From contig JAXLVB010000001.1 in assembly GCA_046329195.1 (NCBI GenBank), positions 2,585,235 through 2,649,234 on the forward strand: a stretch of 64,000 nucleotides of DNA, given 5' to 3'. How positions within the stretch are numbered: position 1 is the first letter of the stretch; each line of letters begins with the position of its first letter. Made by a program: the position numbers and the translations under genes. This document shows positions 32,942-62,224 of the stretch, piece by piece. This stretch comes from Spirosomataceae bacterium. GTDB taxonomy: Bacteria > Bacteroidota > Bacteroidia > Cytophagales > Spirosomataceae. The notes below the pieces were generated by a model. The model worked only from the letters and a program-made list of their open reading frames with translations. It ran no database searches and was not told where the DNA came from.

Positions 32942-32964
32942 ATCCACAAATGCCACTTCTCTCG

Positions 32965-32993
32965 AACCTCGCTCACTCAGGGCGAGGTTTTTG
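32965..32993 (+). terminator. Intrinsic terminator AACCTCGC…GCGAGGTT–TTTT after the flotillin gene
   Basis: 8-bp stem plus U-tract. Confidence 0.7.
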
Positions 32994-33118: not shown

Positions 33119-35053
33119 ATGAAGCTACTAAAACGTATCTATTTAGGACTGACGATAGCGCTATTGCTCAGCGAGCCAGCTTTTTCTCAAAAAGTAACGA
33201 TTCCGAATTCCATTGATTCCTTAGTTACCTTTTTGAAGACTTATCCCAAGCAAGATTCTATCTACAATCGAGCACTTAACCGCCTGACCCGCAAGTACAT
33301 CTACGAAAAAGCCGACTATCGGGGTGCCGACTCGCTGGCAAAATTGTCAGAAACGTTGGCCAAGAAAATAGGCTGGAATCTAGGGTTGGTAACAGCCTAT
33401 GTCCATCAGGCTACGGTGCCATTCTTGCAAGACAACCCTGAACAGGCAGCAGTGTTTTTCAAAAAAGCATTGGCGACTGCCGAAGCCGCTCGTTTGGAGC
33501 AAGAGGTCATTGCTAACTATGGTAATTTGGCCGTAGCTTATGACAGAATGGAAAAATGGGATCTTGCCATGGACTATGCCATGAAAGGTATCAACTACCA
33601 AGAGAGCCACCATTTCAAAACTCGATTTTCGAACTTGTATGCAACGGTAGGCAAGGCGCTCAAGCGTATGGGGCGACCCAAAGAAGCGTTGCCATATTAC
33701 TTAGAGGCGATTAAGGCCGATCAAGAAAGTAACAATCAACGGAATCTAGCTGTTTCGTACAACCTTACAGGCAATATCTACGATGATTTGGGCCAATTAC
33801 AAACAGCGCTGAGTTATTATAAAAAATCACTCAGCTTGGCCGAATCCATCAAGTTTGAGCTGCTGCAGGCCGATGCGCTTGACAACATCGGGCGCATGTA
33901 CACTAAACTCAAGAGACCAGCCGAAGCCTTGCCCTATTTTGAAAAATGCCTTCGGATTGGGCAGAAACAGAACAATCAAGAGACTACCGCCACTGCCTAC
34001 AATAGTTTGGGAAATGTGTATAAGAATTTGAACAAACCTAAAGAAGCCGAAGAATATCTGAAATTGGCAGTGAGCATCGCCCAAAAAGAGGAATTTACCG
34101 AAGATTTGAAGCACTACACCAAAGACTTGGCCGATTTTTATAAAGAAAACCAGCAGTATAAGTTGGCTTATGAGCAGCAGTTAAACCTCAATCGGTTGCG
34201 AGATTCGGTGCAGTCGTCGGTGCAGAGTAAAGAGGTAAAAGAGCTCATCGCCAAATTCGAATCCGAGAAAAAAGAGCAGCAAATCAAGCTCTTACATCAA
34301 GAGGCTCAGCTCAAAGAGCAGTCGCTGGCAGAAGCCAAACAGCGAGAGCAGTTTTATTGGATAGCAGGCATTGGCTTGGTGGTATTGATGGTGCTTGGCT
34401 GGGCTTGGTTACAAAATAGGAATCGCCTCAAACGCTTGGAAGAAAACCAAGCCATTCGGAAAAAAATTGCCCAAGACCTCCACGACGAAGTAGGTAGTAC
34501 ACTCAGTAGTATTTCGCTACTCAGTGGCCTTACCGACAAGCTACTCGACGAAAAACGCCCCGAGTCGGCGCAGCGTATGGTAAAGAAAATTTACCAAGAT
34601 GCTCGTACGATTTTGGATTCGATAGATGAAATCATCTGGACCATTAACCCCTCTAACGACACGTTGCGGCGCATTGCTTTCCGATTACAAGAATATGCCC
34701 AGCCGCTGATGGAATCAAAAAACATTGACTTCTCGGTCGAAATCCAGCCTGATATTGACGAGTTGCCGATTTCGATGGAGGTGCGTCGAAACTTATACTT
34801 AATTGGCAAAGAAGCGATCAATAATTCGGTAAAACACTCCGAAGCGCAATCGGCTAAGTTGAAGTTTGAGCGACAAAATAAAACGCTTAAAATCACCATT
34901 ATAGACAATGGAAAAGGCTTTGATACGGCGACGCCTACTACCCGAAACGGCCAGCAAAGTATGAAACAACGAGCCGAATTGATAGGAGGTTCACTTAATC
35001 TACAAACAGCCCCTGGCGAAGGCACCCAGCTCGAATTACTGGTAGAATGTTAG
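33119..35053 (+). CDS. Sensor histidine kinase with periplasmic/extracytoplasmic TPR repeats, one TM helix, and HisKA_3 + HATPase_c (NarX/DegS class)
   Basis: Signal peptide, multiple TPR-like repeats (AxSYNxLGNVY), a TM segment (FYWIAGIGLVVLMVLGWAWL), the H-box LHDEVGSTLSSI, and G-boxes. Confidence 0.85.
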   Translation: MKLLKRIYLGLTIALLLSEPAFSQKVTIPNSIDSLVTFLKTYPKQDSIYNRALNRLTRKYIYEKADYRGADSLAKLSETLAKKIGWNLGLVTAYVHQATVPFLQDNPEQAAVFFKKALATAEAARLEQEVIANYGNLAVAYDRMEKWDLAMDYAMKGINYQESHHFKTRFSNLYATVGKALKRMGRPKEALPYYLEAIKADQESNNQRNLAVSYNLTGNIYDDLGQLQTALSYYKKSLSLAESIKFELLQADALDNIGRMYTKLKRPAEALPYFEKCLRIGQKQNNQETTATAYNSLGNVYKNLNKPKEAEEYLKLAVSIAQKEEFTEDLKHYTKDLADFYKENQQYKLAYEQQLNLNRLRDSVQSSVQSKEVKELIAKFESEKKEQQIKLLHQEAQLKEQSLAEAKQREQFYWIAGIGLVVLMVLGWAWLQNRNRLKRLEENQAIRKKIAQDLHDEVGSTLSSISLLSGLTDKLLDEKRPESAQRMVKKIYQDARTILDSIDEIIWTINPSNDTLRRIAFRLQEYAQPLMESKNIDFSVEIQPDIDELPISMEVRRNLYLIGKEAINNSVKHSEAQSAKLKFERQNKTLKITIIDNGKGFDTATPTTRNGQQSMKQRAELIGGSLNLQTAPGEGTQLELLVEC

Positions 35054-35147
35054 GCGAATCATATTTTTATCCGATAGCAATAGGTAGGCGAGGCTACTAC
35101 CTTTACGCCTTTATTAATATATCCATCAGTACAGACATCTTGTCGCT

Positions 35148-35780
35148 ATGAAAAGCCCCTACATTTCAGTTTCTATTTACGACGACAACGAGTCGCTGCG
35201 AGATACCTTGGCCATGGTTATTGACGAAAGCGACGATATGTTTACGTTTGGCTTGTATAGCGATGCCATGCAGGTGGTTCCGAATATCCTACACGACAAA
35301 CCCGACGTGGTGCTCATGGACATTGACATGCCCGGCAAAACGGGTATTGAGGCGGTAAAACAGCTCAACGAACTGGCCAAACCGCCCAAAGTGCTAATGC
35401 TAACCGTTTATGAAGACACCGACCGTATTTTTGCGGCCATTGCCGCCGGGGCGGTAGGATATCTACTCAAAAAAACACCCGCCGACAAAATCATGGAGGC
35501 CATTCGTGACGTGATGCACGGTGGCGCAGCCATGACGCCGAGCATTGCCTTTAAGGTGCTGAGTGCCTTCCAACAGCCCAAAACCAACCAATACCAACTT
35601 ACCGAAAAAGAAAAAGAAGTATTACGCTGCTTGGTCAATGGCGACAGCTACAAACTCATTGCCTTCAACTGTGGCATCAGTATGGGAACCGTACGCACCC
35701 ACATCATGAATATCTACGAAAAACTTCACGTCAATTCTAAATCCGAAGCCGTCGCTAAAGCACTAAAGGGAGGGTTTTGA
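35148..35780 (+). CDS. NarL/FixJ (LuxR-type HTH) response regulator
   Basis: REC domain (DVVLMDIDMPGKTG; K at LLKK) and C-terminal LuxR HTH (LTEKEKEVLRCLVNGDSYKLIAFNCGISMGTVRTHIMNIYEKL). Confidence 0.9.
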   Translation: MKSPYISVSIYDDNESLRDTLAMVIDESDDMFTFGLYSDAMQVVPNILHDKPDVVLMDIDMPGKTGIEAVKQLNELAKPPKVLMLTVYEDTDRIFAAIAAGAVGYLLKKTPADKIMEAIRDVMHGGAAMTPSIAFKVLSAFQQPKTNQYQLTEKEKEVLRCLVNGDSYKLIAFNCGISMGTVRTHIMNIYEKLHVNSKSEAVAKALKGGF

Positions 35781-35986
35781 TTATCATAGTGAAGCGTTGC
35801 AAAAAGAATCAGGTGTTTTCACCTAAATCTTCTGCCCACCTATTTGTAGATTTGAGTGTAAATATTTGACTGTCAATAACTTAATTCGTGATTGGTGATT
35901 AGGTGTTTTTACGCTCATATATTTATCCGATTGAAGCCCGTTGGTTCAGACCTTAGTTTTGTACAGTCTGAATGTTACTCAAAAAC

Positions 35987-37687
35987 ATGGTTTCTTTCAA
36001 AAAATACCTCTGTTGGTTTTTGTGGCTATGGGCAGGTATCTGCTTAGGGCAAAATACCGATACTTCTACTGCCAAAAAATTGGTAAGCGTATCGGGTGGA
36101 CTCAATGCCTATGCAGGTTTCTATACAGCCAGTGGCATTCCGAGTCGTAACCAACAGGCACCCTTGGGCATTAGCGGAGCGCTAACCGTTACGCTACCTG
36201 GCGGTATTTCGTTGCCTTTTTCGGCAGTGCTGGGCAATCAAGGCAGTAGTTTTCGGCAGCCGTTCAATCAGTTTGGTGTGAGTCCTACTTACAAGTGGAT
36301 TACCCTGCATGGCGGGTATCGCAACGTTAATTTCTCACCTTTTACACTGGCAGGGCACACATTTTTGGGTGGAGGCGTCGAGCTTAACCCTGGTCTGTTG
36401 CGCTTAGGGGCTGTGTATGGCCGATTCAACCAAGCCATTTCTTCGACGGTTGTTGACCCCAACGTATTGCCTTCGTACAGTCGGTCAGGGTATGCCCTCA
36501 AGGTAGGTATAGGAAAATCTAATAACTACCTTGACTTGGTGTTACTCAAAGCCAGCGACGACTCTACTTCCATCAAAAGTATTCCACCCACTGCCGACCA
36601 AACCATCCGTCCTGCCGAAAACTTGGTTATCGGCGTTACTTCTAAATTGCTGCTATTCAGTCATATCAGCTTCGATTTAGATGTGGCCGCTAGTGCTTAT
36701 ACCCGTGACACCCGTGCCAAAGCCGTAGAGGCCGAAAGCAAAATTACATGGTTTAGAGCTTTGGGTAGTCTGTTCACGCCCCGCCTTTCGACCCAACTCA
36801 CGCAGGCCATTCAAACCAGCATTGGCTACCAAGACGCTTGGGGAAGCCTCAAACTTCAGTACAAGCGCATTGATCCCAATTTTCAGACGATGGGAGCCTA
36901 TTACTTCCAGAGCGACATCGAAAGCTACACCATCAGTCCGTCGTTCAATTTACTGGGTGGCAAGCTTCGGTTGGCAGGTAGCTACGGGGTACAGTTTGAC
37001 AATTTACAAGAAAACAAATCGGCTCGTACAGGGCGCAGCATTGGTTCGCTGACGATGTCATACAATCCAATGGTGAAGTTTGGAATAGACCTTGTGTTTT
37101 CTAACTACGGTATTAGCCAAAAAGCAGGTATTCGCCCTTTGATTGACACGCTTCGCTTGGCCCAAAACAACCTTACAGCCACACTCAATACACGCTACTT
37201 GATTCAGGACGAAAACATCTCGCATGTGATTACGTTTTCGGCTACGCATCAGCAACTCAGCGACCTCAATACCACTACGGCAGCCTCTACCGAAAACAGC
37301 AACCAGAATCTCAACGTAGGATATTTTCATCAGCAGATTCAAACAGGCTGGGGGCTCAATGCGATGTTTTCTTATACACAGAGTACCCTTCCCAAAGCAA
37401 CCGCTGCTGTTACAGGTTCTACCCTGCGCTTTTATGGCCCTACGGCAGGTATGTCTCAGGCTTTTTTGAAGAAAAAACTCAACACATCGGTCAATGGGAG
37501 TTATTTGATTAATCAACAGCTGAACCAAATAGGTAAGGTGATAACTATTTCAGCAACAGGTGCTTACAAAGTAGCCCGCCGGCAAAACCTGAGCGCTTCG
37601 CTCAATTATTTGTTCTCAGATACAGGCATTCAAAATCAACAGTTCAACGAACTTAGAGGAAATATAGGCTATGGAATTTCTTTTTAA
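35987..37687 (+). CDS. Outer-membrane β-barrel protein of unknown function (566 aa from the second Met)
   Basis: Signal peptide, pervasive alternating hydrophobic/polar β-strand pattern, and a C-terminal aromatic residue (…GYGISF) typical of OMP β-signals. Confidence 0.6.
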   Translation: MVSFKKYLCWFLWLWAGICLGQNTDTSTAKKLVSVSGGLNAYAGFYTASGIPSRNQQAPLGISGALTVTLPGGISLPFSAVLGNQGSSFRQPFNQFGVSPTYKWITLHGGYRNVNFSPFTLAGHTFLGGGVELNPGLLRLGAVYGRFNQAISSTVVDPNVLPSYSRSGYALKVGIGKSNNYLDLVLLKASDDSTSIKSIPPTADQTIRPAENLVIGVTSKLLLFSHISFDLDVAASAYTRDTRAKAVEAESKITWFRALGSLFTPRLSTQLTQAIQTSIGYQDAWGSLKLQYKRIDPNFQTMGAYYFQSDIESYTISPSFNLLGGKLRLAGSYGVQFDNLQENKSARTGRSIGSLTMSYNPMVKFGIDLVFSNYGISQKAGIRPLIDTLRLAQNNLTATLNTRYLIQDENISHVITFSATHQQLSDLNTTTAASTENSNQNLNVGYFHQQIQTGWGLNAMFSYTQSTLPKATAAVTGSTLRFYGPTAGMSQAFLKKKLNTSVNGSYLINQQLNQIGKVITISATGAYKVARRQNLSASLNYLFSDTGIQNQQFNELRGNIGYGISF

Positions 37688-37694
37688 ATGGCAA

Positions 37695-40600
37695 ATGTTC
37701 CAAGATGGCTCGCTCCGATTGAAGAATCGGGGCGGACATGGTACAGCGTCCCTGACGCTAAAAAAAGCCTGTTGGATATACTTACTGCTCTGGCAAAGCA
37801 TGGCTCAAGCCCAAACCCTCAACCAGTCGGTACAGATTACTGTCAATGTACTGCCTCCTTATAGCGCTTACATTCAAGACTACGCTTCGGCAGGGCGGCA
37901 GGTGCAGATTTTTATTCGGAACACCACTGCCAATACGCAAAATCTCCGCTTGGTAGGTACCGTTACGGGCGACAACGGCGTGGTGATTCAGACCCAAGCC
38001 AACTACCGCCCGCCAGTACCCCTGCGCTTGGCCCCTTTTGAAAATCGTTTGCTGAGTCAGGTAGATTTAGAAGGGCTTTTTGACCTCAATCAGATTGATG
38101 TTCAAGGCATTGACAAAAACCGCTTGTACCGAGGCTACCCGCTGCCCGATGGTAATTACCAACTGTGTGTCAAGGCATTTGACAACGCCCGAAACCTCCA
38201 ACTTTCGCCCGATTTTCCGTTGGGTTGTAGCGGGATGTTCATCTTGAAGTCAATTGAGCCGCCGATTTTGATTTCGCCGATGAACGGTATGGAAGTACCG
38301 GCTACCATCCCTCAGACACTAACCTTCAACTGGACGCCGCCCGTAGGTGTACCTCCAACGAGCATCAGCTATACGCTCCGAATCATAGAATTACCCAACA
38401 GCCAGATCGACCCCAATGTGTATATCGATGCCGTGGCACTGCCCAAAAGTGGGTTAGAGGTCAAAGACCTGAGAACCAGCGTTTTTCTGTATAGCCCTCA
38501 ATACCCTCCGCTCATGGTTGGTAAGCGTTATGCTTGGCGGGTGCAAGCTATTGACCGTTTTGGTAAGCTGAATTTTCTAAACGATGGCAAAAGCCCTGTG
38601 GGGGAGTTTACCTACGGGATAGTAGATTCTAAATTCAAGAAACCGGGTATGGAGGTAGCACAGTCGCCTACTATGCAGCTGCCTTTGCCTGGCTTTCAGC
38701 CAGTGACGAATCCGCTGGATACACTCAAAAAGAAAGATTATGTACTCAAAACCCAAGGACTTTCGATTGGATGCTCGTGTAAAGTGGATTTGGGCGATTT
38801 AGACAAGCAAAAAGTGGATAACTCCACAGTGCTGGCTAACCGAGTGGCTACCGTTGCGGGTTTTCAACTCACTCTGCTTGATGATGTAAAAGAAGATGAA
38901 AGCGGTTACTTGAATGGGAAGGGTACCGTACCCATTCCGATGATTAATAACCAGTATGCTCGCCTGAGGGTACAACTTTACAACGTACAATGCAACGCCG
39001 AAGGGCAAGTGATTGGTGGGGTAGTAAGAGGCATTTACAGCGGTAATACGTCGTTTAAACCCAATTGGGACAAGCCCGACTACTCACCGACGCCACTCAC
39101 GACTGAGCAGATTAGCAACATCGGTGATTTCTTTACCAATCAAAAAGACAGGTTGGTATCGAGTCTCAAAAACTCAGCAAAAAGCATTGGTTTTGAGCTG
39201 CCCTTTGGCATAGACAAACAATTTGGCCCAGTAAAATCGGTAGTGGCTGTTACCAATATTACGTTTACACCCAAAGAAGCCTTTTTTGATGCCAATACAT
39301 GGATAACCCTACCGACCGCACCAGGAGGCTTCAACGGAATTGCGCTGAGTGGGTATAATCTATGCCTGAGTCCGCAAAAGCCTTGTGGCGAAGGGATACT
39401 CTTTTTGGCCCAAGACACTAAACTCTCCGAATACGCTGCGCTTAAAGGAGCTAATTTGGTTATTCCTGGTAATAATCCTATCTATAAACCCGATACAACC
39501 CAAGCTACCTACGCTGTATTTGACGAAAATGGTTACCATCATCTCAGCGCCAAAGTAGGTATCAAGCCCCCCAAACTCTTGAAAGCCAGTGATAACACTC
39601 CTGTTGAAATTATCTTTGGAGCGTATTTTCCTACGCCTTCGTTCAGCCAGTGGACGGCTACACTGGAGTTTCCTGATTTCTATGTGGATGGCCTGAAAGA
39701 CTTTGTGTTTTCGACTAACAACCAAAAAGTTATCTACGACCACTCCGACCAGCCTGACTCTTACGTGGCACTATTGCCCAACAACTACCCCGAACCCGGT
39801 CAAAAGCCTGGAGGCGAGTGGAGGGGCTTGTTTTTTCCCAGCTTGAGCATGACGCTCCCAGCGGTATTTGAACGAGCCGATGGCAAAAAGCTCACCGTGG
39901 GAGTCAAAAATATGATTTATGATAACAACGGCTTTTCGGGCAAAGCCTTCGCCGCTAATATCCTCGACCTAGGCGATGGTTCGCTACAAGGTTGGTATTT
40001 TGCCATTGATACTGTTTCGGTTGATTTCCTAACCAGTAAGTTTAAGTCGGCGGGGGTATTTGGTCGAATTGTGCTACCCATCTTCAAGTACAAAGACGGT
40101 AGCAAAGATGGCGAAGGCATGGAGCAGTCCTCGCTGTGGCCGTATAGTTGTACCCTTTCTAAAGACGACACCAAGGGTATGACGTATGAGTTCAATGTGA
40201 GTCCGTCGCAAGATGCACAAGTGGACATCTGGAAGGCCAAATTAAGTATCTTGAAGGGGACATCTATCAAAATTGGGAATAGTACAGGAACTTTTAATGC
40301 CGTGGCTACACTCCATGCCAAGCTGGGCTTTCAGATTACGTCCTTTTTTGCTCCAGGGGTTGAAGTTCATAATATGATTTTGCAATCAAACGGGCCTGAT
40401 TATTTCTCGCCTGGTAGTATCAATATGGCACTGGCATCGCCCCAAAAGACCTCAGGAGGATTACCGTTTACACTCACCAATCCCTCGCTTGTCAGCAATG
40501 GCGCCAATCAATACCGTTTCAAGTTTACAGGTGTACTGAATCTCTCAGAAGCCGCTCAGTTTACAGCTGAAGCGACCTGTTATTTAGACTTTAAAGTAGG

Positions 40601-43600: not shown

Positions 43601-43643
43601 GCTATTTGATGCGCTGCTCAAGTATCTGGCTGGCGGAAAATAA
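37695..43643 (+). CDS. Giant (~1980 aa) secreted/cell-surface protein of unknown function. The true start is uncertain: ATG 37671 or 37695, or TTG 37716, which would give signal peptide MKNRGG…LLLWQSMA.
   Basis: Single uninterrupted ORF with β-rich, G/N/T-rich composition. It overlaps the stop of the OMP gene. I recognised no known catalytic motifs. Confidence 0.7.
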   Translation: MFQDGSLRLKNRGGHGTASLTLKKACWIYLLLWQSMAQAQTLNQSVQITVNVLPPYSAYIQDYASAGRQVQIFIRNTTANTQNLRLVGTVTGDNGVVIQTQANYRPPVPLRLAPFENRLLSQVDLEGLFDLNQIDVQGIDKNRLYRGYPLPDGNYQLCVKAFDNARNLQLSPDFPLGCSGMFILKSIEPPILISPMNGMEVPATIPQTLTFNWTPPVGVPPTSISYTLRIIELPNSQIDPNVYIDAVALPKSGLEVKDLRTSVFLYSPQYPPLMVGKRYAWRVQAIDRFGKLNFLNDGKSPVGEFTYGIVDSKFKKPGMEVAQSPTMQLPLPGFQPVTNPLDTLKKKDYVLKTQGLSIGCSCKVDLGDLDKQKVDNSTVLANRVATVAGFQLTLLDDVKEDESGYLNGKGTVPIPMINNQYARLRVQLYNVQCNAEGQVIGGVVRGIYSGNTSFKPNWDKPDYSPTPLTTEQISNIGDFFTNQKDRLVSSLKNSAKSIGFELPFGIDKQFGPVKSVVAVTNITFTPKEAFFDANTWITLPTAPGGFNGIALSGYNLCLSPQKPCGEGILFLAQDTKLSEYAALKGANLVIPGNNPIYKPDTTQATYAVFDENGYHHLSAKVGIKPPKLLKASDNTPVEIIFGAYFPTPSFSQWTATLEFPDFYVDGLKDFVFSTNNQKVIYDHSDQPDSYVALLPNNYPEPGQKPGGEWRGLFFPSLSMTLPAVFERADGKKLTVGVKNMIYDNNGFSGKAFAANILDLGDGSLQGWYFAIDTVSVDFLTSKFKSAGVFGRIVLPIFKYKDGSKDGEGMEQSSLWPYSCTLSKDDTKGMTYEFNVSPSQDAQVDIWKAKLSILKGTSIKIGNSTGTFNAVATLHAKLGFQITSFFAPGVEVHNMILQSNGPDYFSPGSINMALASPQKTSGGLPFTLTNPSLVSNGANQYRFKFTGVLNLSEAAQFTAEATCYLDFKVGVKANKRPNFDIMKYGVEHIGGDKQFVGLMYLKFDLDFYENDPTYGDGFGGKASLRFTETGSGIDIASKFGKFQGYNYFYVGGVYNMPKPARIPLFPGVFYLSGFGGGIYYNMNYNPADVSYKPSKGKMGMQAKVLANTVDGYVLNTDMQLTMQLNEDAAGLHMDKISLDGNAYLLAVPNLDNPMVMASSEPGSPLAKGHAYFQYSFAEKVFDGNASLTAAYAAGTFKITATNSLSIHASSQGWYLAIGTPKQRNNLTVSAGGKDLGKFGSYLIAGSMSPPGETVLPTELYGLDASFVAKLQGSKVGGNWISSNPNSPILAFGAGFGVGYEYKVPPFFLSFNGGVGFDLALIKPDQPCPGFANMGVNGWYAMGQLYAGLSFALGIDVDLWFASGRFKAVEVSAGALMKGGVMNPIWFQGRVFLKYKILGGAIKGSHDMDFAYNETQKCDVPLEAPNPFAENPLISKLGPSGNDAVSILSPFYAEFGYPINSIIQTEYMDKDNKTIKRDFRIDYKKGEQFKLTLKSGIPAGFEGCADNNEGRHSFGQDEEGQNRSATFARNNALLPNSTYALTVGVEVKVRSNNQWVVYEYQGKKAKAEPVQQSETVTFKTGACIDVLTTKGSETNESTVAFTYPFEGQRYFMKDESKQGLVRLTASMACCMKNLNSNEFYTLNARFIPYKEGSFIPTQQGGALLSPAQFDGSVITYAIPSGLLNSTLYRVDIVRIPTDAFLTKQTDELAKIKENAKTFALENNTSSVSKWLDPQPGKSLGNNAQLPKGGGLGPNGLAVNEKAQSNTVEAIQKYVQQNYADAVNVPISSKIITDYKFLNAAGVNIEKLTDNFNSKERDKLKYEQVKYSYYFKTSKYNTMAQKVQKAAIDSPSQEVTKWLYQGEEYIYSAPFKLDENFDTYEIAGQTIGNKGAKMYLPPLFGLKATRNNKWVTGFLEPLETKVDAAYNKLGGVSGGIGIDGMVAKMARITPYVDSYVYSSAEPPLSKEKIDALLFDALLKYLAGGK

Positions 43644-43665
43644 CACCTCCATAACAAGCCCTCGT

Positions 43666-44211
43666 ATGAAACGCTTTTTATTTATCTTATTAGTAGTCGT
43701 GCTTTGTGGGGAACAAACGCAGGCTCAATTCTCCAACAAGAACGTGGATTTATCGGGTAGCGACATCGCTGGGATGGTCAATACAACACAATACAACCCG
43801 AAATCAGAAAAGACATTGAGTTGGGTCGGAACCATTACCAAAGAACCGACAGCAGTAGAATCGTACGTATTTGGCAGTAGTGCGCCTGCTCGTTATCTGT
43901 TTGTGTATGACCCCACACCCGCCTATGATGTCTATGTGGCGCTCAACAAAGCTGGCTACCAATACTGCTACGAGTCGGGGCCTTATGGTGACTGTACTCT
44001 TAGCAAAGCTTTGTCGGGCTATAAAGCTTTTTTCACGTTTGTACCCCTCACCGTTTTCACAGACTTTCAGTATATCCAACCCGACTACCTAAAAACCTTA
44101 GCTAAGTCAGGTGCATTGTACGACAAAAGCCAAGCCGACCCTACCACTGAGCACGTTTTCCAATGGACGGTCATACGGTCGGGAGTGGGTTTTACTGCTC
44201 AGAAAAAATAA
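43666..44211 (+). CDS. Secreted hypothetical protein (181 aa; signal peptide MKRFLFILLVVVLCGEQTQA)
   Basis: ORF immediately downstream of the giant gene with a clear signal peptide. Confidence 0.5.
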   Translation: MKRFLFILLVVVLCGEQTQAQFSNKNVDLSGSDIAGMVNTTQYNPKSEKTLSWVGTITKEPTAVESYVFGSSAPARYLFVYDPTPAYDVYVALNKAGYQYCYESGPYGDCTLSKALSGYKAFFTFVPLTVFTDFQYIQPDYLKTLAKSGALYDKSQADPTTEHVFQWTVIRSGVGFTAQKK

Positions 44212-44234
44212 CGCCCCAAACGACTCTTACTTTT

Positions 44235-46313
44235 ATGAAATATCTGTTCGCTTTTTTGTTGTTTAGTTCTTGGAGCTTTGCCCAAACACAGCCTAAACCA
44301 ACACCTCCCCAAGCCTCCAACGATGCTCCAAAGCCAGCGGCTATCAGCTTGGTAACCCGCTCTTACGGTGATTCGGTGGTGGTGCGATGGGCTACTGACA
44401 ATTCCATTCTTTGGAAAATGTCGCTTGAAGCAGGCTATCGGCTTACTCGCAAGAGTATCACGGCACAAGGTAAGGTAATGGTTGATTATCAGATTGTTGT
44501 GAAGCCGTGGAGTGTAGAAGAATGGAGACAAAAACATTGCCCCAACGATACACTTGCCGCCATTGCTACTCAATTGGTTTGGGGTAAAACCAAGCCTATT
44601 CGCTACGACGAAGAAGTAACGCTTGACAAGCTCATGCGCCAACAAAACCTCAATGACACTCGCTTAATGATGGCGCTCATTTTGGCTGACGAAAATACCC
44701 AACGAGCCCGAGGGATGGCTTTGGGTTGGGTGGACAAAAAGGTGGTAAAAGGTACGCAATATGTCTATAGCATTCGCTCCTTGGCCGATGCTAAATTGTA
44801 TCCTGCCGACACCGCTTTCACCGTACTACGCAACGACGGGCCTTACCCTCGCCCCGAAATGCCACCCGTTTACGCCTCGGCTGGCGACAAAGTGGCTACG
44901 TTATCTTGGGATCGGTACATAGCTGAAAAAGCTTTTTCATCGTACTACATCGAACGCTCCGACGACGGCGGACGCACATTCAAACGCATAACGATTCGTC
45001 CGTGGGTTTCGTCGGCCAGTGAAAACGACCGAGAATCCATCCAATACAGTGATTCACTCAGCACTAACTATAAATCGTACCAGTACCGAGTAGTAGGTAA
45101 TACGGCTTTTGGTGAGCCAAGCTTACCCTCAAAACCAGTGGCCGTCAAGGGTATAGACATGGAGGCACCTTCGGGAGTTACCATGCTTACTGCCGAACAC
45201 CAGTTGGGTAGTCGAGTGAGGCTTCGCTGGCAGCACCCTAACGCCCCTTCTGATTTGGCGGGGTACCTAGTAGCCAAAGCTGTACAGAGTGAAGGACCTT
45301 TTGTGCCACTAACCAAAAAACTACTCCCTACCAATCAGCGAGAATTTATAGATACTACAGCTATACCAACACTGCCAGCTTATTACGTAGTGGTGTCAGT
45401 AGATACCTCCAAAAATTCACAGCGGTCGCTACCTGTTTATTGTATGTTCAAAGATGTCAAAGGCCCTACCCGTCCAACGGGTCTGCAAGGGTATATTGAT
45501 ACGACAGGCTTGGTACGAGTAGTATGGAATCCTAACCTTGACCAAGACCTAATGGGCTACAAAGTGCTCATCGCTAACGACCCCACGCACGTGTTTACGA
45601 GTGTTACGGATGGGTACTTACAAACGGCTGTTTTTAATGACACCACTACCTTGCAGACCCTCACTCGACACTTATACGTGCGGGTCGTGGCTTACGACAA
45701 ACATTTTAATCCCAGCTTACCGTCTGACATTCTGACACTCACTCGACCTGACAAGATACCGCCCATTACCCCTGTTTTTGCGGGATTTACCGCCAGCGAT
45801 AGTAGCATTACCATGAACTGGGTAAGCGGCAGCGACGATGTAAAAGAGTTGGGGCTCTATCGTCGCAATGCCAGTTCGGAGCGATGGAGAGAGTTGAAAA
45901 AACTCCCTACTCAAACCAATACCTATACCGATAAAGCGCTGAAACCCAACACCGACTACCAGTACATGCTCGTGGCGGTAGATTCGGCAGGTTTGCGCTC
46001 GCCGGAGTCCTTTCCGCTCAATACCGCTACACTCCGCACCATTCCCAAAAGCATCAAACAACTCAATGCAGCGCTGAGTGCCGATAAAAAAGCAGTGAAT
46101 TTGACTTGGAAAGCTCCCGCCGACAATTGCTATTACATTATTTACAAAGCCCTAGGCACTGACTACTTGCAAAGCTACGATAAGGTAGCTCGCCTCAATA
46201 CGTTTACCGACCGAAACGTGCTTCCTGGCGTAGTGAACTATGCCGTAAAGGTACTCTATGCCGACGGCAGCGAGTCGGCGCTGTCTCAGCCAGTACGAGT
46301 GGAGATTAAATAA
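44235..46313 (+). CDS. Secreted multi-domain protein with several fibronectin type III-like domains (692 aa)
   Basis: Signal peptide MKYLFAFLLFSSWSFAQ. It has repeated FN3-like elements (YxYRVVxxxxxGE, WxxPxxxxDLxGYxV…Y). Confidence 0.65.
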   Translation: MKYLFAFLLFSSWSFAQTQPKPTPPQASNDAPKPAAISLVTRSYGDSVVVRWATDNSILWKMSLEAGYRLTRKSITAQGKVMVDYQIVVKPWSVEEWRQKHCPNDTLAAIATQLVWGKTKPIRYDEEVTLDKLMRQQNLNDTRLMMALILADENTQRARGMALGWVDKKVVKGTQYVYSIRSLADAKLYPADTAFTVLRNDGPYPRPEMPPVYASAGDKVATLSWDRYIAEKAFSSYYIERSDDGGRTFKRITIRPWVSSASENDRESIQYSDSLSTNYKSYQYRVVGNTAFGEPSLPSKPVAVKGIDMEAPSGVTMLTAEHQLGSRVRLRWQHPNAPSDLAGYLVAKAVQSEGPFVPLTKKLLPTNQREFIDTTAIPTLPAYYVVVSVDTSKNSQRSLPVYCMFKDVKGPTRPTGLQGYIDTTGLVRVVWNPNLDQDLMGYKVLIANDPTHVFTSVTDGYLQTAVFNDTTTLQTLTRHLYVRVVAYDKHFNPSLPSDILTLTRPDKIPPITPVFAGFTASDSSITMNWVSGSDDVKELGLYRRNASSERWRELKKLPTQTNTYTDKALKPNTDYQYMLVAVDSAGLRSPESFPLNTATLRTIPKSIKQLNAALSADKKAVNLTWKAPADNCYYIIYKALGTDYLQSYDKVARLNTFTDRNVLPGVVNYAVKVLYADGSESALSQPVRVEIK

Positions 46314-46325
46314 AAAGGAACTGAC

Positions 46326-49300
46326 ATGAAAAAGGTATATTTCTTGTTGATAGGTTGCTTGGGCTTAATACAGTTGAGTATGGCGCAAGCCCCTACCAAT
46401 CTCTCGCTGAGGGTGGTGAGCCCGGCTCAAATATGCGTGTCGTGGACCGACAATACGACGAGCGAACTGGGCTTTGAGGTAGAGCGTAGTACCGACCGCC
46501 TCACCTACACCAAAGTAGCCGATGTAGCGGCCAACACCACGGAGTTCTGCAATATCAACCTGAGCCCTTCGACCTTGTACTATTACCGGGTCCGGGCCAA
46601 GCTGACGGCTACAACCTTTTCGGGGTATTCGAATACCGATTTTGCTACCACTCAAGCTGCCCCTGATACACCTACTGGCTTGGCTGTAAGTGTGTTATCT
46701 ACCAGTTCGTTGCGGCTGCAATGGGGGTCTAATACATTTGCATATCAGTACGACATCGAACGCCGAACGGGGCAAACGGGTGCATTTGCCGTCATCGCAA
46801 CGGTCTCTTTTGCCCGATTGATCAATCGCCAATATGACAATACGGGACTCAATGACGGCACGGAGTATTGTTACCGAGTACGGGTAAGAGAAAATGACGG
46901 AACAACGTCTGCGTATTCGGCCATCGCTTGTGCTACTACGCCGCTGGCTCCGCCCACCGCCCCCGCCCGCCTGACGGCCACGGCGGTTTCGGCCACTCAG
47001 ATTAACCTATCGTGGGCAGATTTGTCTGATAACGAATCGGGTTTTGAAATTGAGCGTAGCACCGATACTCGCAATTATACCAAAATCGCCGATGTGGGTG
47101 CTAATGTGACCACGTACCAAAACACGGGTCTCAACGACAATACCCAGTACTGCTATCGAGTACGAGCCAAAAATACCGCTGGCAACTCGGCCTATACTGA
47201 CCCTGCTTGTGCGACCACCCCATTGGCTCCGCCTACTGCCCCCGCCCGCCTGACGGCTACAGCAGTTTCGGCTACTCAGATTAACTTGAGTTGGGCAGAT
47301 TTGTCTGATAACGAGACAGGCTTTGAAATCGAGCGTAGCACTGACACTCGCAATTATACTAAAATCGCCGACGTGGGCGCTAACGTGACCACCTACCAAA
47401 ACACGGGCCTCAACGATAATACCCAGTACTGCTACCGAGTACGAGCCAAAAATACCGCTGGAAACTCGGCCTATACTGACCCTGCTTGTGCGACCACTCC
47501 GCTAGCGCCGCCCGCTGTCCCGGCTCGCCTGACGGCTACGGCGGTTTCGGCGACCCAGATTAACCTATCGTGGGCGGATTTGTCTGATAATGAAAGTGGC
47601 TTTCAGGTAGAGCGAGGTAGCGATGGGGTGAATTTTACGAAGATTGCGGACGTCGCTGCCAATACCACGAGTTATGCCAATACGGGTTTGACGGCAAACA
47701 CCCGCTACTATTACCGAGTACGAGCCGTGAATACGGCGGGCAATTCGGCCTACTCCAACGTGGCCGATGCTACCACCCTCGACACGCCACCTCTTGCACC
47801 TACCCGCCTGACGGCCACGGCGGTATCGAGTAGTCAGATCAATTTATCTTGGGTCAATAACAGTACCAACGAAACTGGTATCGAGGTAGAACGCTCTACC
47901 GATGGTACTACTTTCACAAACATTGCTACCCTCCGACCTGGTACTACTACCTACCAAAGTACGGGCCTTACGGCAGCTACTCGCTACTGGTATCGGGTAA
48001 GAGCCGTGAATGCCGCTGGCAATTCGGCCTACTCCAACGTGGCCGATGCCACCACCCTCGATACGCCACCCAATGCGCCCGCTCGTTTGACGGCTACCGC
48101 TGTATCAAGTTCACAAATTGATTTGACTTGGGCGGATTTATCAAACAACGAAACGGGCTTTGAAATCGAAAGTAGCCCTGATGGTACTACTTTCACCAAA
48201 ATTGCTGATGTGGCGGCGAATGTCACTACCTACCAAAACACGGGGCTTACGGCTTCGACTCGCTACTGGTATCGGGTGAGGGCTAAAAACTCAGCGGGAA
48301 ATTCTAGCTACTCCAACATCGCTGATGCCACCACTCAAGCGCCTCCCGTGACGATTCCACGTCCGCCATCTAATTTGACGGCCACCACAGTAAGTAGCTC
48401 ACAGATAGACTTAGCTTGGACGGACAATGCTACGGATGAAACAGGCTTTGAAATCGAACGCAGCCCTGACGGTACTACGTTCACCAAAATCGCCGATGTG
48501 GCGGCGAATGTCACTACCTACCAAAACACGGGCCTCACGGCTTCGACTCGCTATTGGTATCGAGTTCGTGCAAAAAATACAGCAGGAAATTCCGCCTACT
48601 CCAACATCGCCGATGCCACCACGCAAGCGCCTCCCGTGACGATTCCGAGGCCACCTTCGGCGCTAACAGCCACCGCCATAAGTAGCTCCCAAATTGACTT
48701 GGCTTGGACGGACAATGCCACTGACGAAACGGGTTTTGAAATCGAGCGCAGTCCCGACGGTACTACGTTCACCAAAATCGCCGACGTAGCCGCCAATGCC
48801 ACCACCTACCAAAGTACGGGGCTAAACGCTTCGACTCGCTACTGGTATCGGGTTCGGGCTAAAAACTCAGCGGGAAATTCTAGCTACTCCAACATCGCCG
48901 ATGCGACCACGCAAGCACCTCCTGTCACCATTCCACGGCCACCTTCTAATTTGGTAGCCACCGCCATAAGTAGTTCCCAGATTGACTTGGCTTGGACGGA
49001 TAACGCTACTGATGAAACGGGTTTTGAAATTGAGCGCAGCCCCGACGGTACTACGTTCACCAAAATAGCTGACGTAGCCGCCAACGCTACCACCTACCAA
49101 AACACGGGTCTCACGGCTTCGACTCGCTATTGGTATCGAGTTCGGGCTAAAAACTCAGCGGGGAATTCTACTTACTCCAACATCGCTGATGCCACCACGC
49201 AGGCACCTCCCGTCACCATTCCACGGCCACCATCTAATTTGGTAGCCACCGCCGTAAGTAGCTCCCAAATTGACTTGGCTTGGACGGACAATGCTACTGA

Positions 49301-50633
49301 CGAAACGGGTTTTGAAATTGAGCGCAGTCCCGACGGTACTACGTTCACCAAAATCGCTGATGTGGCGGCGAATGTCACTACCTACCAAAACACGGGGCTT
49401 ACGGCTTCGACTCGCTACTGGTATCGGGTGAGAGCAAAGAACTCAGCGGGAAATTCCGCCTACTCCAACATTGCCGATGCGACCACTCAAGCGCCTCCCG
49501 TGACGATTCCGAGGCCACCTTCGGCGCTAACAGCCACCGCCGTGAGTAGTTCTCAGATTGACTTGGCTTGGACGGACAATGCCACCGACGAAACAGGCTT
49601 TGAAATTGAGCGTAGCCCCGATGGTACTACGTTCACCAAAATCGCTGACGTAGTCGCTAACGCCACCACTTACCAAAACACGGGTCTCACGGCTTCGACT
49701 CGCTACTGGTATCGGGTGAGGGCTAAGAACTCAGCGGGTAATTCCGCCTACTCCAACATCGCTGATGCCACCACACAAGCGCCTCCCGTCACGATTCCGA
49801 GACCGCCTTCGGCGCTAACAGCTACCGTATTATCCAGTTCGCAGATTGATTTAGTCTGGACCGACAATGCTACTGATGAAGCAGGTTTTGAAATTGAGCG
49901 TAGCACCGATGGTACCAATTTTACAAAAATCGCTGATGTCGCTACTAACGTGACGTTTTACTCCAATACTGGATTGAGCCCTTCTACCCGTTATTGGTAT
50001 CGGGTTCGGGCCAAGAATACGGCAGGTAATTCGGCGTATTCTAACGTGGCCGATGCCACCACCTCAGCAGCCTCTACAGGTGGAGGAACGCTGGCTGCCC
50101 CTCAAAATCTAAGAGCAACCCCCATTGATTTTGATTTGGTACGCCTTTCGTGGACACCGTTGCCCTCCAATACCCCTGCCACTTCAATTATCATCGAACG
50201 TTCAACGAGTCCTACGGCTGGCTTTGTCCAGATTGGGCAAGTACCTGCTGATGCTATTGTGTTTGCCGACAAAGAAATCTTAAATGTAGTCAATCAATAC
50301 TATCGCATCAAGGCCGTAAATGCTACCAACAGTTCACCCTATAGCAATGTGGCAACAGTTTTGGCTAATGCCATTATTACGGCTGTACCCGCCTCTGTCT
50401 CGCCGAAAATAACGATCGCAGCAGCGTCTGAAAAGTTGCTGATTCGCTTAGAACAAGCGAACCCGTCGCCTGCTCAGGTGAGCGTGTATTCGTTAGCCGG
50501 AATGCCTGTTTATCAGGCAGTGCTGCCCACCGATACGTCTTGGCAAGTGGATTTACACTATCAAACAGGACTCTTTATTGTTGTAGTAGAAACCAACCAA
50601 GCCGTGGCTACCCAAAAAATCATTCTACCATGA
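46326..50633 (+). CDS. T9SS-secreted surface protein with ~14 tandem fibronectin type III domains and a C-terminal Por-secretion (T9SS) sorting domain
   Basis: Signal peptide. The ~96–99-aa unit repeats about 13 times (…LTATAVSSSQIDLAWTDNATDETGFEIERSPDGTTFTKIADVAANVTTYQNTGLTASTRYWYRVRAKNSAGNSAYSNIADATT). The C-terminus has a CTD-like segment (VSVYSLAGMPVYQ…GLFIVVVETNQAVATQKIILP). Confidence 0.85.
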   Translation: MKKVYFLLIGCLGLIQLSMAQAPTNLSLRVVSPAQICVSWTDNTTSELGFEVERSTDRLTYTKVADVAANTTEFCNINLSPSTLYYYRVRAKLTATTFSGYSNTDFATTQAAPDTPTGLAVSVLSTSSLRLQWGSNTFAYQYDIERRTGQTGAFAVIATVSFARLINRQYDNTGLNDGTEYCYRVRVRENDGTTSAYSAIACATTPLAPPTAPARLTATAVSATQINLSWADLSDNESGFEIERSTDTRNYTKIADVGANVTTYQNTGLNDNTQYCYRVRAKNTAGNSAYTDPACATTPLAPPTAPARLTATAVSATQINLSWADLSDNETGFEIERSTDTRNYTKIADVGANVTTYQNTGLNDNTQYCYRVRAKNTAGNSAYTDPACATTPLAPPAVPARLTATAVSATQINLSWADLSDNESGFQVERGSDGVNFTKIADVAANTTSYANTGLTANTRYYYRVRAVNTAGNSAYSNVADATTLDTPPLAPTRLTATAVSSSQINLSWVNNSTNETGIEVERSTDGTTFTNIATLRPGTTTYQSTGLTAATRYWYRVRAVNAAGNSAYSNVADATTLDTPPNAPARLTATAVSSSQIDLTWADLSNNETGFEIESSPDGTTFTKIADVAANVTTYQNTGLTASTRYWYRVRAKNSAGNSSYSNIADATTQAPPVTIPRPPSNLTATTVSSSQIDLAWTDNATDETGFEIERSPDGTTFTKIADVAANVTTYQNTGLTASTRYWYRVRAKNTAGNSAYSNIADATTQAPPVTIPRPPSALTATAISSSQIDLAWTDNATDETGFEIERSPDGTTFTKIADVAANATTYQSTGLNASTRYWYRVRAKNSAGNSSYSNIADATTQAPPVTIPRPPSNLVATAISSSQIDLAWTDNATDETGFEIERSPDGTTFTKIADVAANATTYQNTGLTASTRYWYRVRAKNSAGNSTYSNIADATTQAPPVTIPRPPSNLVATAVSSSQIDLAWTDNATDETGFEIERSPDGTTFTKIADVAANVTTYQNTGLTASTRYWYRVRAKNSAGNSAYSNIADATTQAPPVTIPRPPSALTATAVSSSQIDLAWTDNATDETGFEIERSPDGTTFTKIADVVANATTYQNTGLTASTRYWYRVRAKNSAGNSAYSNIADATTQAPPVTIPRPPSALTATVLSSSQIDLVWTDNATDEAGFEIERSTDGTNFTKIADVATNVTFYSNTGLSPSTRYWYRVRAKNTAGNSAYSNVADATTSAASTGGGTLAAPQNLRATPIDFDLVRLSWTPLPSNTPATSIIIERSTSPTAGFVQIGQVPADAIVFADKEILNVVNQYYRIKAVNATNSSPYSNVATVLANAIITAVPASVSPKITIAAASEKLLIRLEQANPSPAQVSVYSLAGMPVYQAVLPTDTSWQVDLHYQTGLFIVVVETNQAVATQKIILP
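46941..50063 (+). repeat. Coding tandem DNA repeat array of 11 units of ~288–297 bp. Several units are >95% identical at the nucleotide level.
   Basis: Units starting at 46941 and 47229 encode identical peptides except for one residue. Units 8–13 (~48330–50063) are near-identical. Confidence 0.85.
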
Positions 50634-51118
50634 GAACACACCTCTTGCCCACCACAAGGCGACGATTAGCCTTTTCAAGCAACTTAGTTTATGGGGTACT
50701 ATTGCTTTTTGTGTTGAGTTTGGCAGCCTGCCAACCCAAAACGGTAGCGCCCATCAGCGACTTAATCGGGAAAATTTGGAAAGTTCAGAGTGTCAAAGAA
50801 AACAGCGTGCAGGTCTATGCCGCAGGAGCCACCAACAACATCCGTCCGAGTTACATCAACTTTCGGCTGGATTTGTCCAAGACTTCGCAAGTAACCTTCA
50901 TTGACTTAGATGGACGAAAAACTATTGGAACATGGTCATTGTCAACTGATAATCAGCGGCTTATTCTTCAGAATTTGGTGCCGCAACCCAGCGAAACCAA
51001 TGGCAACATTGAGTTTTACATCAAATCAATCACTGAAAACAACTTGGAGCTTGAACGAACCGCCGAGAGCCGAAAAACAGGGAATTCGTTGAATGAATAT
51101 TCCCTGATTCCTGAATAA
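50630..51118 (+). CDS. Small lipoprotein (163 aa; lipobox LSLAAC). Its start overlaps the FN3-protein stop (ATGA).
   Basis: ATG at 50630–50632 overlaps TGA at 50631–50633. Signal peptide with lipobox. Confidence 0.6.
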   Translation: MRTHLLPTTRRRLAFSSNLVYGVLLLFVLSLAACQPKTVAPISDLIGKIWKVQSVKENSVQVYAAGATNNIRPSYINFRLDLSKTSQVTFIDLDGRKTIGTWSLSTDNQRLILQNLVPQPSETNGNIEFYIKSITENNLELERTAESRKTGNSLNEYSLIPE

Positions 51119-51139
51119 ATGCCACTTCTCGTTACTAAG

Positions 51140-51173
51140 TCCCACTGGCAGCCTTGTGTTGGTGGGATTTTTT
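51140..51173 (+). terminator. Intrinsic terminator TCCCAC…GTGGGA–T6 at the end of the surface-protein operon
   Basis: 6-bp stem with 16-nt loop and U-tract. Confidence 0.65.
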
Positions 51174-51426
51174 GTGAATAGGCAGTACATCAAACACTTG
51201 CTAATTTTGAAAAACTAAATCAGAATCTCTACTTTAAAATGGTACCGTAATGCAGGGGGCAGGACAGTATCAACAAGAGGTTTAATAATGATGTTAACTT
51301 AGTAGTTTACTGCCATTATGTAAATTGAAACCAAAAGAGTAAAACTTGATAAGTTGCCTGAATAGAGATACCCATTGGTTCTGTAAACAGTCGTGTTTCT
51401 TTGGAGTTTACTAAACATTAAGGCAG

Positions 51427-61985: not shown

Positions 61986-62224
61986 GATATTTACAATTTT
62001 TTTGTCCGATTGACGCTGCAAATATCACGGAATAATTCTAATTTGTCAAGTTTACACTTATCCAGAATTTAAAATATTATTCTAATCACATTCCCTAAAT
62101 TAACATATTTCACAAATTATATATTGCGAATATATTAAAAATTAAACATATATTTGGTTTAATATAAATTACTATAGGTAAAATTTCAAATTTGAAAAAT
62201 CTTAAAATTCTTTAAAAAGTACAA

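Follow-up and report, generated by a model that had tools for sequence, protein, structure and literature searches.

A conserved barrel–TANFOR gene pair suggests a regulated, two-partner-like surface module in Bacteroidota

We analysed a 64,000-nucleotide (nt) stretch of the genome of a Spirosomataceae bacterium (GenBank assembly GCA_046329195.1, contig JAXLVB010000001.1; hereafter the window) in which a block of eight open reading frames (ORFs), all on the + strand at positions 33119-51118, includes the gene of a large outer-membrane β-barrel overlapping by 17 nt the gene of a 1990-amino-acid (aa) secreted protein. The giant protein is probably a further member of the catalogued class of TANFOR-domain proteins. 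Across several orders of Bacteroidota the barrel and the N-terminal module of the giant form a constant pair, behind which the body of the giant and its downstream partner are exchanged. We think the chances about even that these genes encode a regulated two-partner-like module, in which the barrel would export and/or anchor the giant through its N-terminal module, together with an FN3-rich partner and under a switch formed by a TPR-containing kinase and a LuxR-type regulator. In the literature searched, neither the coupling to the barrel nor the cassette structure nor the promoter element reported below appears to have been described before, and the same seems to hold for the N-modules that stand alone in five related loci.

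The barrel gene (35972-37687, +) encodes 571 aa with a signal peptide and a C-terminal ...GYGISF ending, and its true start may be Met6 at position 35987. The overlapping giant gene (37671-43643, +) encodes a protein with a Sec signal peptide (...LKKACWIYLLLWQSMAQAQ) followed by a TANFOR domain, an order read from the sequence by eye. BLAST comparison of the giant with 120 homologues revealed a sharp homology break at aa 316. About 40 homologues, which we call type A, align with the window protein over nearly its full length at 37-45% identity; the others have only aa 36-316 in common with it (50-67% identity) and continue into unrelated bodies of 1400-2800 aa, at least three of which follow the conserved segment, some of them rich in CarboxypepD_reg domains and 2400-2800 aa long. 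We refer to this segment, the TANFOR domain together with a second β domain and the part of the giant cognate to the barrel (37776-38618, +; limits set by the homology boundary), as the N-module. Used by itself as a query, the N-module retrieved only 8 short proteins, which did not alter this picture.

The association of the barrel with the N-module is conserved over large evolutionary distances. ORFs were predicted in 83 loci and identified through jackhmmer searches with the window proteins; 76 loci have at least 1 kb downstream of the barrel, and 59 have enough sequence for the FN3 partner to be judged. A protein with the N-module lies immediately downstream of the barrel in 73 of the 76, and the two genes overlap by exactly 17 nt in 28 loci. 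The giant is followed in 52 of the 59 by a homologue of the conserved N-terminal part of fn692, the FN3-rich protein encoded third in this core, and in 3 more by a protein with an FN3-only match; the remaining 4 are Emticicia loci with a stand-alone N-module of 281-283 aa. The core of barrel, TANFOR giant and FN3 partner extends to Hymenobacter and Flavobacterium, whose barrels are 33-34% identical to that of the window, and the same three proteins are present in an Ignavibacteria metagenome-assembled genome (MAG). The preliminary description of this DNA had suggested the barrel as a dedicated anchor or exporter of the giant and had named gene-neighbourhood conservation across Bacteroidota as a check; the core order of barrel, N-module protein and FN3 partner passes that check, and the partnership of barrel and giant is borne out by their adjacency in several orders and by the co-variation of barrel and N-module.

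Sequence comparison between loci separates a constant unit from an exchanged one. Pairwise identities of barrel and N-module correlate with r = 0.94, a figure inflated by shared phylogeny, and those of barrel and FN3 partner with r = 0.38. When only pairs of loci with a barrel identity of at least 55% are considered, barrel identity stays at ~67-69% and N-module identity at ~62-65% whichever body type the giants carry, whereas FN3-partner identity is 49% within a body type and 18% between body types. Because barrel and N-module identities hold while that of the FN3 partner drops, we distinguish a constant unit of barrel and N-module from an exchanged cassette of body and FN3 partner.

Two kinds of variant stand apart from this layout. 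Five minimal loci, four from Emticicia (L048, L049, L051 and L052) and a fifth from a Cytophagales MAG (L053) with less downstream sequence, contain the barrel and the stand-alone N-module but lack both a giant body and an FN3 partner; all except L052 also hold 2-4 sensor-kinase ORFs, and all except L053 a response-regulator ORF. In a Bacteroidales MAG (L060), two N-module proteins stand in tandem behind one barrel, the first a 311-aa module-only protein at -17 nt and the second a protein of 1062 aa.

The N-terminal domain probably places the giant in a published class. The giant matches the TANFOR model TIGR02542 with E = 3.2e-9 and 36.9 bits, under the curated cutoff of 67, over aa 52-179 and model positions 2-135 of 145; in 8 homologous giants the model finds the domain at this position too, with E values of 1e-6 to 1e-10. 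Though under the NCBIfam cutoff, the match would qualify by the threshold (E <= 1e-7 over at least 90 aligned aa) with which Jana, Salomon and Bosis catalogued the class in 2020; they proposed that TANFOR proteins are polymorphic toxins (PMC7073777). According to that study, many members carry C-terminal nuclease or other toxin domains, some of them anti-eukaryotic; ~87% have a Sec signal; the class occurs in ~6% of the Bacteroidetes genomes surveyed; and FN3, PKD, SprB and type IX secretion system (T9SS) C-terminal domains (CTDs) are enriched near TANFOR genes, with the T9SS named as export route by speculation only (PMC7073777). Homologues of the present locus type appear in the rows of its Supplemental Data 1 considered here, from Runella limosa, Spirosoma, Dyadobacter, Fibrisoma, Hymenobacter, Pedobacter and Tannerella forsythia; in these rows the upstream neighbour is a protein of 547-584 aa without a conserved domain, mostly at a spacing of -17 (in T. 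forsythia at -17 in every strain), and the downstream neighbour has 644-724 aa (PMC7073777). The preliminary description overlooked this kinship and the recognizable, sub-threshold TANFOR domain; the Runella limosa homologue is among those tabulated rows.

The giant resembles TANFOR proteins in its Sec signal, its N-terminal TANFOR domain, its very large size and its FN3 and T9SS-CTD neighbours. It differs from the TANFOR toxins in that it lacks a toxin domain and a swappable C-terminal tip, and no immunity gene is recognizable beside it. The published account makes no mention of an upstream barrel, a conserved FN3 partner, a cassette structure or two-component control, and the words 'barrel' and 'porin' occur nowhere in its text (PMC7073777); in the literature searched, TANFOR is treated elsewhere only by citation.

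The barrel belongs to a large family that is absent from Pfam and NCBIfam. Pfam gave no match to E <= 10, NCBIfam none to E <= 0.01, and a PDB sequence search with the barrel profile returned nothing. A homologue search returned 1106 homologues, with relatives in at least 562 species genomes, spanning Cytophagales, Chitinophagales, Bacteroidales, Lentimicrobium, Sphingobacteriales and an Ignavibacteria MAG; the best identity of the window barrel to any species representative is 67%. In the structure model the protein forms a barrel of about 25 (24-26) strands with no periplasmic domain, and no POTRA, ShlB or Bac_surface_Ag match was found in Pfam. The earlier picture of a large porin-like barrel therefore stands as to the outer-membrane barrel and falls as to porin size, given the ~25 strands of the model. 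Its analogy with PorP/SprF remains an analogy: neither the window barrel nor any of 14 diverse members matches PorP/SprF (PF11751, T9SS membrane protein) at E <= 1, the PorV models show no similarity to the barrel, and DUF5723, which we tested as the UniRef name of a few barrel homologues, matches neither the window barrel nor any of the 14 members at E <= 1. Conservation within the family peaks at aa 88-155 (mean 0.89) and aa 295-315, both partly non-strand, and averages 0.6-0.7 in the remainder, which makes these two segments candidate functional loops.

The best structural matches of the barrel are the FimD/PapC ushers and MtrB–MtrA, barrels of 24-26 strands whose lumen accommodates another protein or lets it through. 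The likeness is one of barrel architecture: unlike the chaperone–usher systems, the window barrel has no usher plug and no N- or C-terminal domains, and the locus encodes no pilin and no PapD-like chaperone; unlike MtrB–MtrA, it encodes no cytochromes.

Beyond the N-module, the giant has no recognizable family. Its body matched no family in Pfam (to E = 10) or NCBIfam (to E = 0.01), and a PDB sequence search with the giant profile returned nothing. AlphaFold2 (AF2) modelling of aa 800-1990 from 43 sequences (pLDDT 77, pTM 0.45) shows a β-meander core at aa ~800-1420 (40068-41930, +) of ~30 antiparallel strands, each of 12-21 residues with one fully hydrophobic face, and then a C-terminal part (41988-43640, +) whose AF2 secondary structure consists of short-strand sandwich domains (aa ~1440-1700) and a helical tail (aa 1701-1990) containing disordered linkers. 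The hydrophobic faces of the meander strands are as clean as those of the actual barrel, and Foldseek lists LptD and lipid-binding sheets among the matches of the core, with TM-scores of 0.1-0.3; a sliding β-amphipathic moment along the giant did not delimit the meander. On the model, the core looks like a membrane-barrel-type amphipathic β-meander rather than a fibre, and the body probably sits in or binds a membrane at the cell surface; the adhesin, motility or surface-layer role raised in the preliminary description is conjectural.

Neither a sorting signal nor a toxin was found in the giant. The T9SS sorting domain (TIGR04183) is absent at E <= 0.01 from this giant and from 8 other TANFOR giants representing three body types, and the type B CTD model matched none of the giants scanned; sorting domains suggested by the UniRef names of some giants with a second, 'type B' body were unconfirmed by NCBIfam in the three tested. 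Toxin families of Pfam and NCBIfam are likewise absent. A subset of type A bodies diverges after aa ~1700, and no variable tip with a known toxin domain was seen among them. We rejected a toxin reading of the tail on account of its distribution: aa 1701-1990 match only 13 clusters in a set of 1.84 billion representative proteins, and each of these is a type A giant or a fragment of one. With no toxin family and a tail restricted to type A giants, this protein lacks what would define a polymorphic toxin.

Four genes follow the giant. A 181-aa protein with a signal peptide (43666-44211, +) occupies a variable slot between the giant and the FN3-rich partner. It has no Pfam or NCBIfam family match and no match to an immunity family, and its positional counterparts (181-379 aa), found only beside type A giants, have a short N-terminal motif (..D/E-M....N) in common and otherwise diverge fast. 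The partner fn692 (44235-46313, +), of 692 aa with a signal peptide and Pfam fn3 matches, is ~25% identical to its homologues in the Hymenobacter and Flavobacterium loci. Next comes a 1435-aa T9SS cargo protein (46326-50633, +) with 13 FN3 stretches (fn3, E = 2e-132) and a type A sorting domain at aa 1372-1433 (nt 50439-50624; TIGR04183, 31.3 bits against a cutoff of 23), the only T9SS sorting domain in the block. The last gene (50630-51118, +) encodes a lipocalin-like lipoprotein (Lipocalin_4, E = 8e-7; lipobox LAAC) and is translationally coupled to the cargo gene by an ATGA overlap at 50630-50633. Related loci contain T9SS cargo counterparts with a matching C-terminal ending; in three of them (L019, L033 and L042) a lipocalin gene overlaps the FN3 cargo gene by 4 nt as it does here, and the lipocalin C-terminus is conserved in these three and in L032. 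All three products of the genes behind the small ORF, which the preliminary description counted as parts of the block, recur in related loci.

Within the cargo gene, the FN3 repeat DNA at 46926-49939 consists of recent tandem duplications (period 279/288 nt, 6.2 copies, 85% identity) that lift the local GC content to 0.53. The repeat copy number likely varies between strains.

A two-component system precedes the barrel. The sensor histidine kinase (33119-35053, +) comprises an N-terminal signal or transmembrane segment, a TPR domain (TPR_12, E = 3e-31), a transmembrane segment at aa ~412-432, HisKA_3 (E = 1e-11) and HATPase_c (E = 3e-7); the two membrane segments flanking it place the TPR domain outside the cytoplasm. 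The response regulator (35148-35780, +) joins a REC domain (Response_reg, E = 9e-22) to a GerE helix-turn-helix (E = 1e-16). HisKA_3, HATPase_c, REC and GerE all score above their Pfam gathering cutoffs, as expected for a NarL/LuxR-type system. The best NCBIfam likeness of the kinase is FimS (E = 1e-30), and at 106 bits, far under the cutoff of 600, the kinase is no FimS equivalog. Like the FimS/FimR system of Porphyromonas gingivalis, it combines an extracytoplasmic TPR domain, a transmembrane segment, HisKA_3 and HATPase, and both systems are associated with control of a surface-structure locus; FimR, unlike the regulator encoded here, is not known to be of GerE type.

Orthologues of this system accompany the barrel in related genomes. 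Response regulators 60-73% identical to that of the window adjoin the barrel in ~24 Spirosomataceae loci, and orthologous kinase–regulator pairs stand beside it in about half of the Spirosomataceae loci. The kinase orthologues show lower identity in the sensor part (27-46%) than in the kinase part (47-67%), and duplication of the kinase, 2-4 times, is frequent. In the closest relative, whose barrel is 81-82% identical, kinase, regulator, barrel and giant are kept together while the flanks differ.

The regulator gene and the barrel operon have a promoter-like element in common. When the spacer between regulator and barrel is aligned with those of the closest relatives, the only conserved block is an element at 35915-35961 (+) composed of TCATATATTTATCCGATTG (35915-35933), 20 nt and TAGTTTTG (35954-35961), the last of which fits the Bacteroidetes -7 consensus TAnnTTTG. 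Across loci the element reads TCATAYATTTATCCGATTG, then 19-21 nt, then TAGnTTTG. A like element, read directly from the sequence, precedes the regulator gene (35059-35105, +) as TCATATTTTTATCCGATAG, 20 nt and TACCTTTA, its core carrying one mismatch. Of 67 loci that have sufficient upstream DNA, 25 carry the core 59-106 nt before the barrel start, and its presence follows the regulator: 20 of 21 loci with an orthologous regulator have it, as against 5 of 46 without (Fisher p = 1.7e-11). Ten related loci have a matching element 49-98 nt before the regulator gene, and an eleventh match, in L031, overlaps the called start of that gene. In all, 35 of 52 core matches mapped across loci sit at one of these two positions, and the whole window contains 4 core matches against 0.38 expected. 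Since the element is common to both, we regard the regulator gene and the structural operon as one circuit, and predict from the sequence that the regulator binds the element. Dedicated two-component control of the block, as first suggested, is supported by the orthologous pairs beside the barrel and by the element common to both genes.

Other sequences near or resembling the element were set aside. Two more one-mismatch copies of the core TTTATCCGATTG in the window are probably chance or non-functional; that at 62001-62012 has no properly spaced -7 box, and that at 21396-21407 lies inside a transposase ORF. A palindrome, AGGTGTTTTCACCT (35809-35826), begins 30 nt past the stop codon of the regulator gene; we rejected it as regulator site or terminator because it folds weakly (-10.3 kcal/mol) and is not conserved in related loci, the motif having no occurrence in the other 80. 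Its near-repeat AGGTGTTTTTACGC (35901-35914) abuts the conserved promoter block, and this copy is conserved in the closest relatives.

The block is compact and clearly bounded. All gene positions and spacers given in the preliminary description were reproduced: besides the overlap of barrel and giant and the ATGA junction, gaps of 22 nt separate giant and small ORF, 23 nt small ORF and FN3 protein, and 12 nt FN3 protein and 13xFN3 protein, and longer spacers lie between kinase and regulator (94 nt) and between regulator and barrel (191 nt). A second gene caller applied to the identical public contig gave a matching gene set (644, 210, 555, 1982, 181 and 692 aa). On the left, a scan detected a hairpin terminator (32964-32990, +; 11-bp stem and T run; -19.1 kcal/mol, z = -4.5) that ends the upstream SPFH/Band 7 gene; on the right, a hairpin with a U run behind it, at ~51137-51175 (+; -20.6 kcal/mol, z = -3.1), was missed by the scan and read directly from the sequence. 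Both fold stably, as was claimed for the boundaries of the block, and on either side lie housekeeping genes with no relation to the block, those of a GMC oxidoreductase and the SPFH protein upstream and those of UPF0029 and SDR proteins downstream. A single 18-kb transcript, also proposed, is unlikely: conserved promoter-like elements in both the kinase–regulator and the regulator–barrel gaps argue for separate promoters, and the block is probably expressed as more than one transcript.

We propose the following mechanism. The barrel and the N-module, made together from overlapping genes, would form the constant unit, and the N-module would dock in or on the barrel. The barrel would thereby act as a dedicated outer-membrane exporter and/or anchor for anything fused to the N-module, with no need of a T9SS sorting signal. 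The exchangeable unit would consist of the giant body, a matched FN3 partner of ~690 aa and, in type A loci, the fast-evolving small secreted protein; in the present locus the body would be a conserved structure of ~1650 aa rather than a toxin cassette, and the FN3 protein its body-specific partner. The T9SS-exported 13xFN3 protein and its coupled lipocalin lipoprotein would be accessory surface components, and the TPR kinase and LuxR-type regulator would switch expression through the element before the regulator gene and the barrel operon. TANFOR proteins with C-terminal nucleases must leave the cell, and we find a two-partner-like reading the most economical because the barrel is the only outer-membrane component encoded in the locus, and the N-module the only part of the giants, that stays constant across body types, because the two are encoded together and co-vary, and because the giants tested carry no T9SS signals. 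The broader proposition of a T9SS-independent, two-partner-type export and anchoring pathway, with exchangeable cassettes and a dedicated circuit, spread over Bacteroidota and reaching at least one Ignavibacteria MAG, we hold more tentatively, at somewhat less than an even chance.

A parallel to such a pathway is found in the TpsB–TpsA and CdiB–CdiA systems, in which a barrel gene likewise stands beside a giant exoprotein gene, the otherwise variable giant begins with a conserved N-terminal module of ~250-300 aa and the distal part is replaced modularly; CdiA also holds a β-rich region proposed to insert into the membrane. Pfam reveals no Omp85 or POTRA domain in the window barrel and no two-partner secretion (Haemagg_act) domain in the giant, and the module differs from two-partner secretion further in its ~25 strands rather than 16, its matched FN3 partner and its occurrence in another phylum.

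Several considerations weigh against the two-partner-like reading. Docking of the N-module on the barrel is a prediction; the co-variation is inflated by common descent, as noted above; and a factor other than this response regulator could bind the common promoter element. A POTRA or other periplasmic recruitment domain is missing from the barrel, and the folded meander of ~600 residues would be too large for a 24-26-strand pore, so that export could proceed only as an unfolded chain. Closure of the meander into a barrel is itself uncertain, because the global confidence of the model is low (pTM 0.45). A link to the T9SS may still exist, because T9SS cargo genes are enriched around TANFOR genes. 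Finally, the barrel pairing is not universal for the class, because among the tabulated rows considered here, the marine Flavobacteriaceae of rows 1-14 (Cellulophaga, Aquimarina, Tenacibaculum) have instead an upstream PKD-repeat lipoprotein of ~450 aa, often overlapping the TANFOR gene, and downstream mostly an unannotated protein of ~745-800 aa (223 aa in the AHH-nuclease row of Tenacibaculum mesophilum; PMC7073777).

Anchoring without export by the barrel is the first alternative, and one we consider unlikely: the giant would cross the outer membrane otherwise, by the T9SS with an unrecognized signal or by another pathway, and the barrel would tether it through the N-module. PorP/SprF-type proteins, which are needed for and associated with SprB-type cargo, are the model for such an arrangement, and the present locus resembles the PorP/SprF–SprB pairs in belonging to Bacteroidota, in pairing a dedicated barrel gene with the gene of a giant surface protein and in having a T9SS cargo gene in the cluster. 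The presence of that type A cargo in the same operon, the enrichment of such genes near TANFOR genes and the absence of a recruitment or plug domain from the barrel are all in keeping with tethering alone; the stand-alone N-modules of the five minimal loci fit a docking platform, and a pore of 24-26 strands would be less suited to a large folded body than the wide translocon of the T9SS. However, no T9SS sorting domain could be detected in any of the nine TANFOR giants tested, the barrel is unlike the PorP/SprF and PorV models, and the Ignavibacteria MAG (L072) has the barrel, TANFOR giant and FN3 partner as well. The window barrel is also much larger than PorP/SprF, and the coupling is to the N-terminus of a giant with no CTD rather than to a C-terminal type B sorting domain.

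Alternatively, the giant could itself be an integral outer-membrane protein or a lipid-binding groove and form a new envelope machine with the barrel, in a layout like that of TamA–TamB or SprA–PorV. Such a machine might translocate the FN3 proteins encoded alongside it, or it might be wired to the TPR kinase as a device for transport or sensing. The LptD and lipid-binding sheets listed by Foldseek and the clean hydrophobic faces of the meander are the structural grounds for this idea, which we judge distinctly improbable. A barrel gene followed by an overlapping giant gene also recalls the order of tamA–tamB, a barrel gene and then a giant gene, and the five minimal loci keep only barrel and N-module, four of them with kinase genes as well. 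Yet the TM-scores of 0.1-0.3 and the pTM are low, the end of the giant shows no C-terminal β-signal, and the CarboxypepD_reg-rich bodies of 2400-2800 aa, which have no meander, use the same barrel and N-module; for this last reason the meander cannot be essential to the conserved mechanism.

A classical TANFOR polymorphic toxin, as proposed for the class by Jana et al. in 2020, would bring a C-terminal toxin to competitors by way of the T9SS, with the small downstream protein as its immunity protein. We rate this lower still. The N-terminal match (E = 3e-9), the homologues in the tabulated rows considered here, the fast-evolving small gene behind the giant and, in T. forsythia rows of like layout, the small nuclease-like genes in the slot after the giant (PMC7073777) would all accord with it. 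Opposed to these are the absence of any Pfam or NCBIfam toxin family and of a sorting domain from the giant, the occurrence of its C-terminal 290 aa in type A giants and never on other carriers, the almost end-to-end alignment of most type A bodies (~37-45% identity) and the signal peptide of the small protein, which matches no immunity family. That the genes are chance neighbours or merely have an operon in common, the barrel being a general porin unrelated to the giant, is very improbable: the synteny data contradict this reading, with adjacency in 73 of 76 loci of distant lineages, a conserved overlap, co-variation and conserved co-regulation.

Elsewhere in the window, GC content falls to 0.37-0.40 between positions 18000 and 24000, against 0.45-0.48 in the surroundings. 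This stretch holds a PRTase-CE gene (19320-20372, +; PF24390, E = 1e-38), directly followed by a NADAR gene (20394-21011, +; PF08719, E = 3e-28) and then by a DDE transposase in two ORFs (21080-22410, -), and resembles a small mobile or conflict-type islet.

The value of this locus is as an entry point to the system. A barrel whose gene overlaps a TANFOR gene, and which persists when the cargo is swapped or absent, provides a concrete and testable candidate for an export route, and the common promoter element offers a testable handle on when the system is switched on. If the two-partner-like reading is true, it would answer how TANFOR proteins, toxin-bearing members included, leave the cell, and would point to a possibly new way of exporting or anchoring proteins at the outer membrane, in a phylum that matters in soil, water, mouth and gut.

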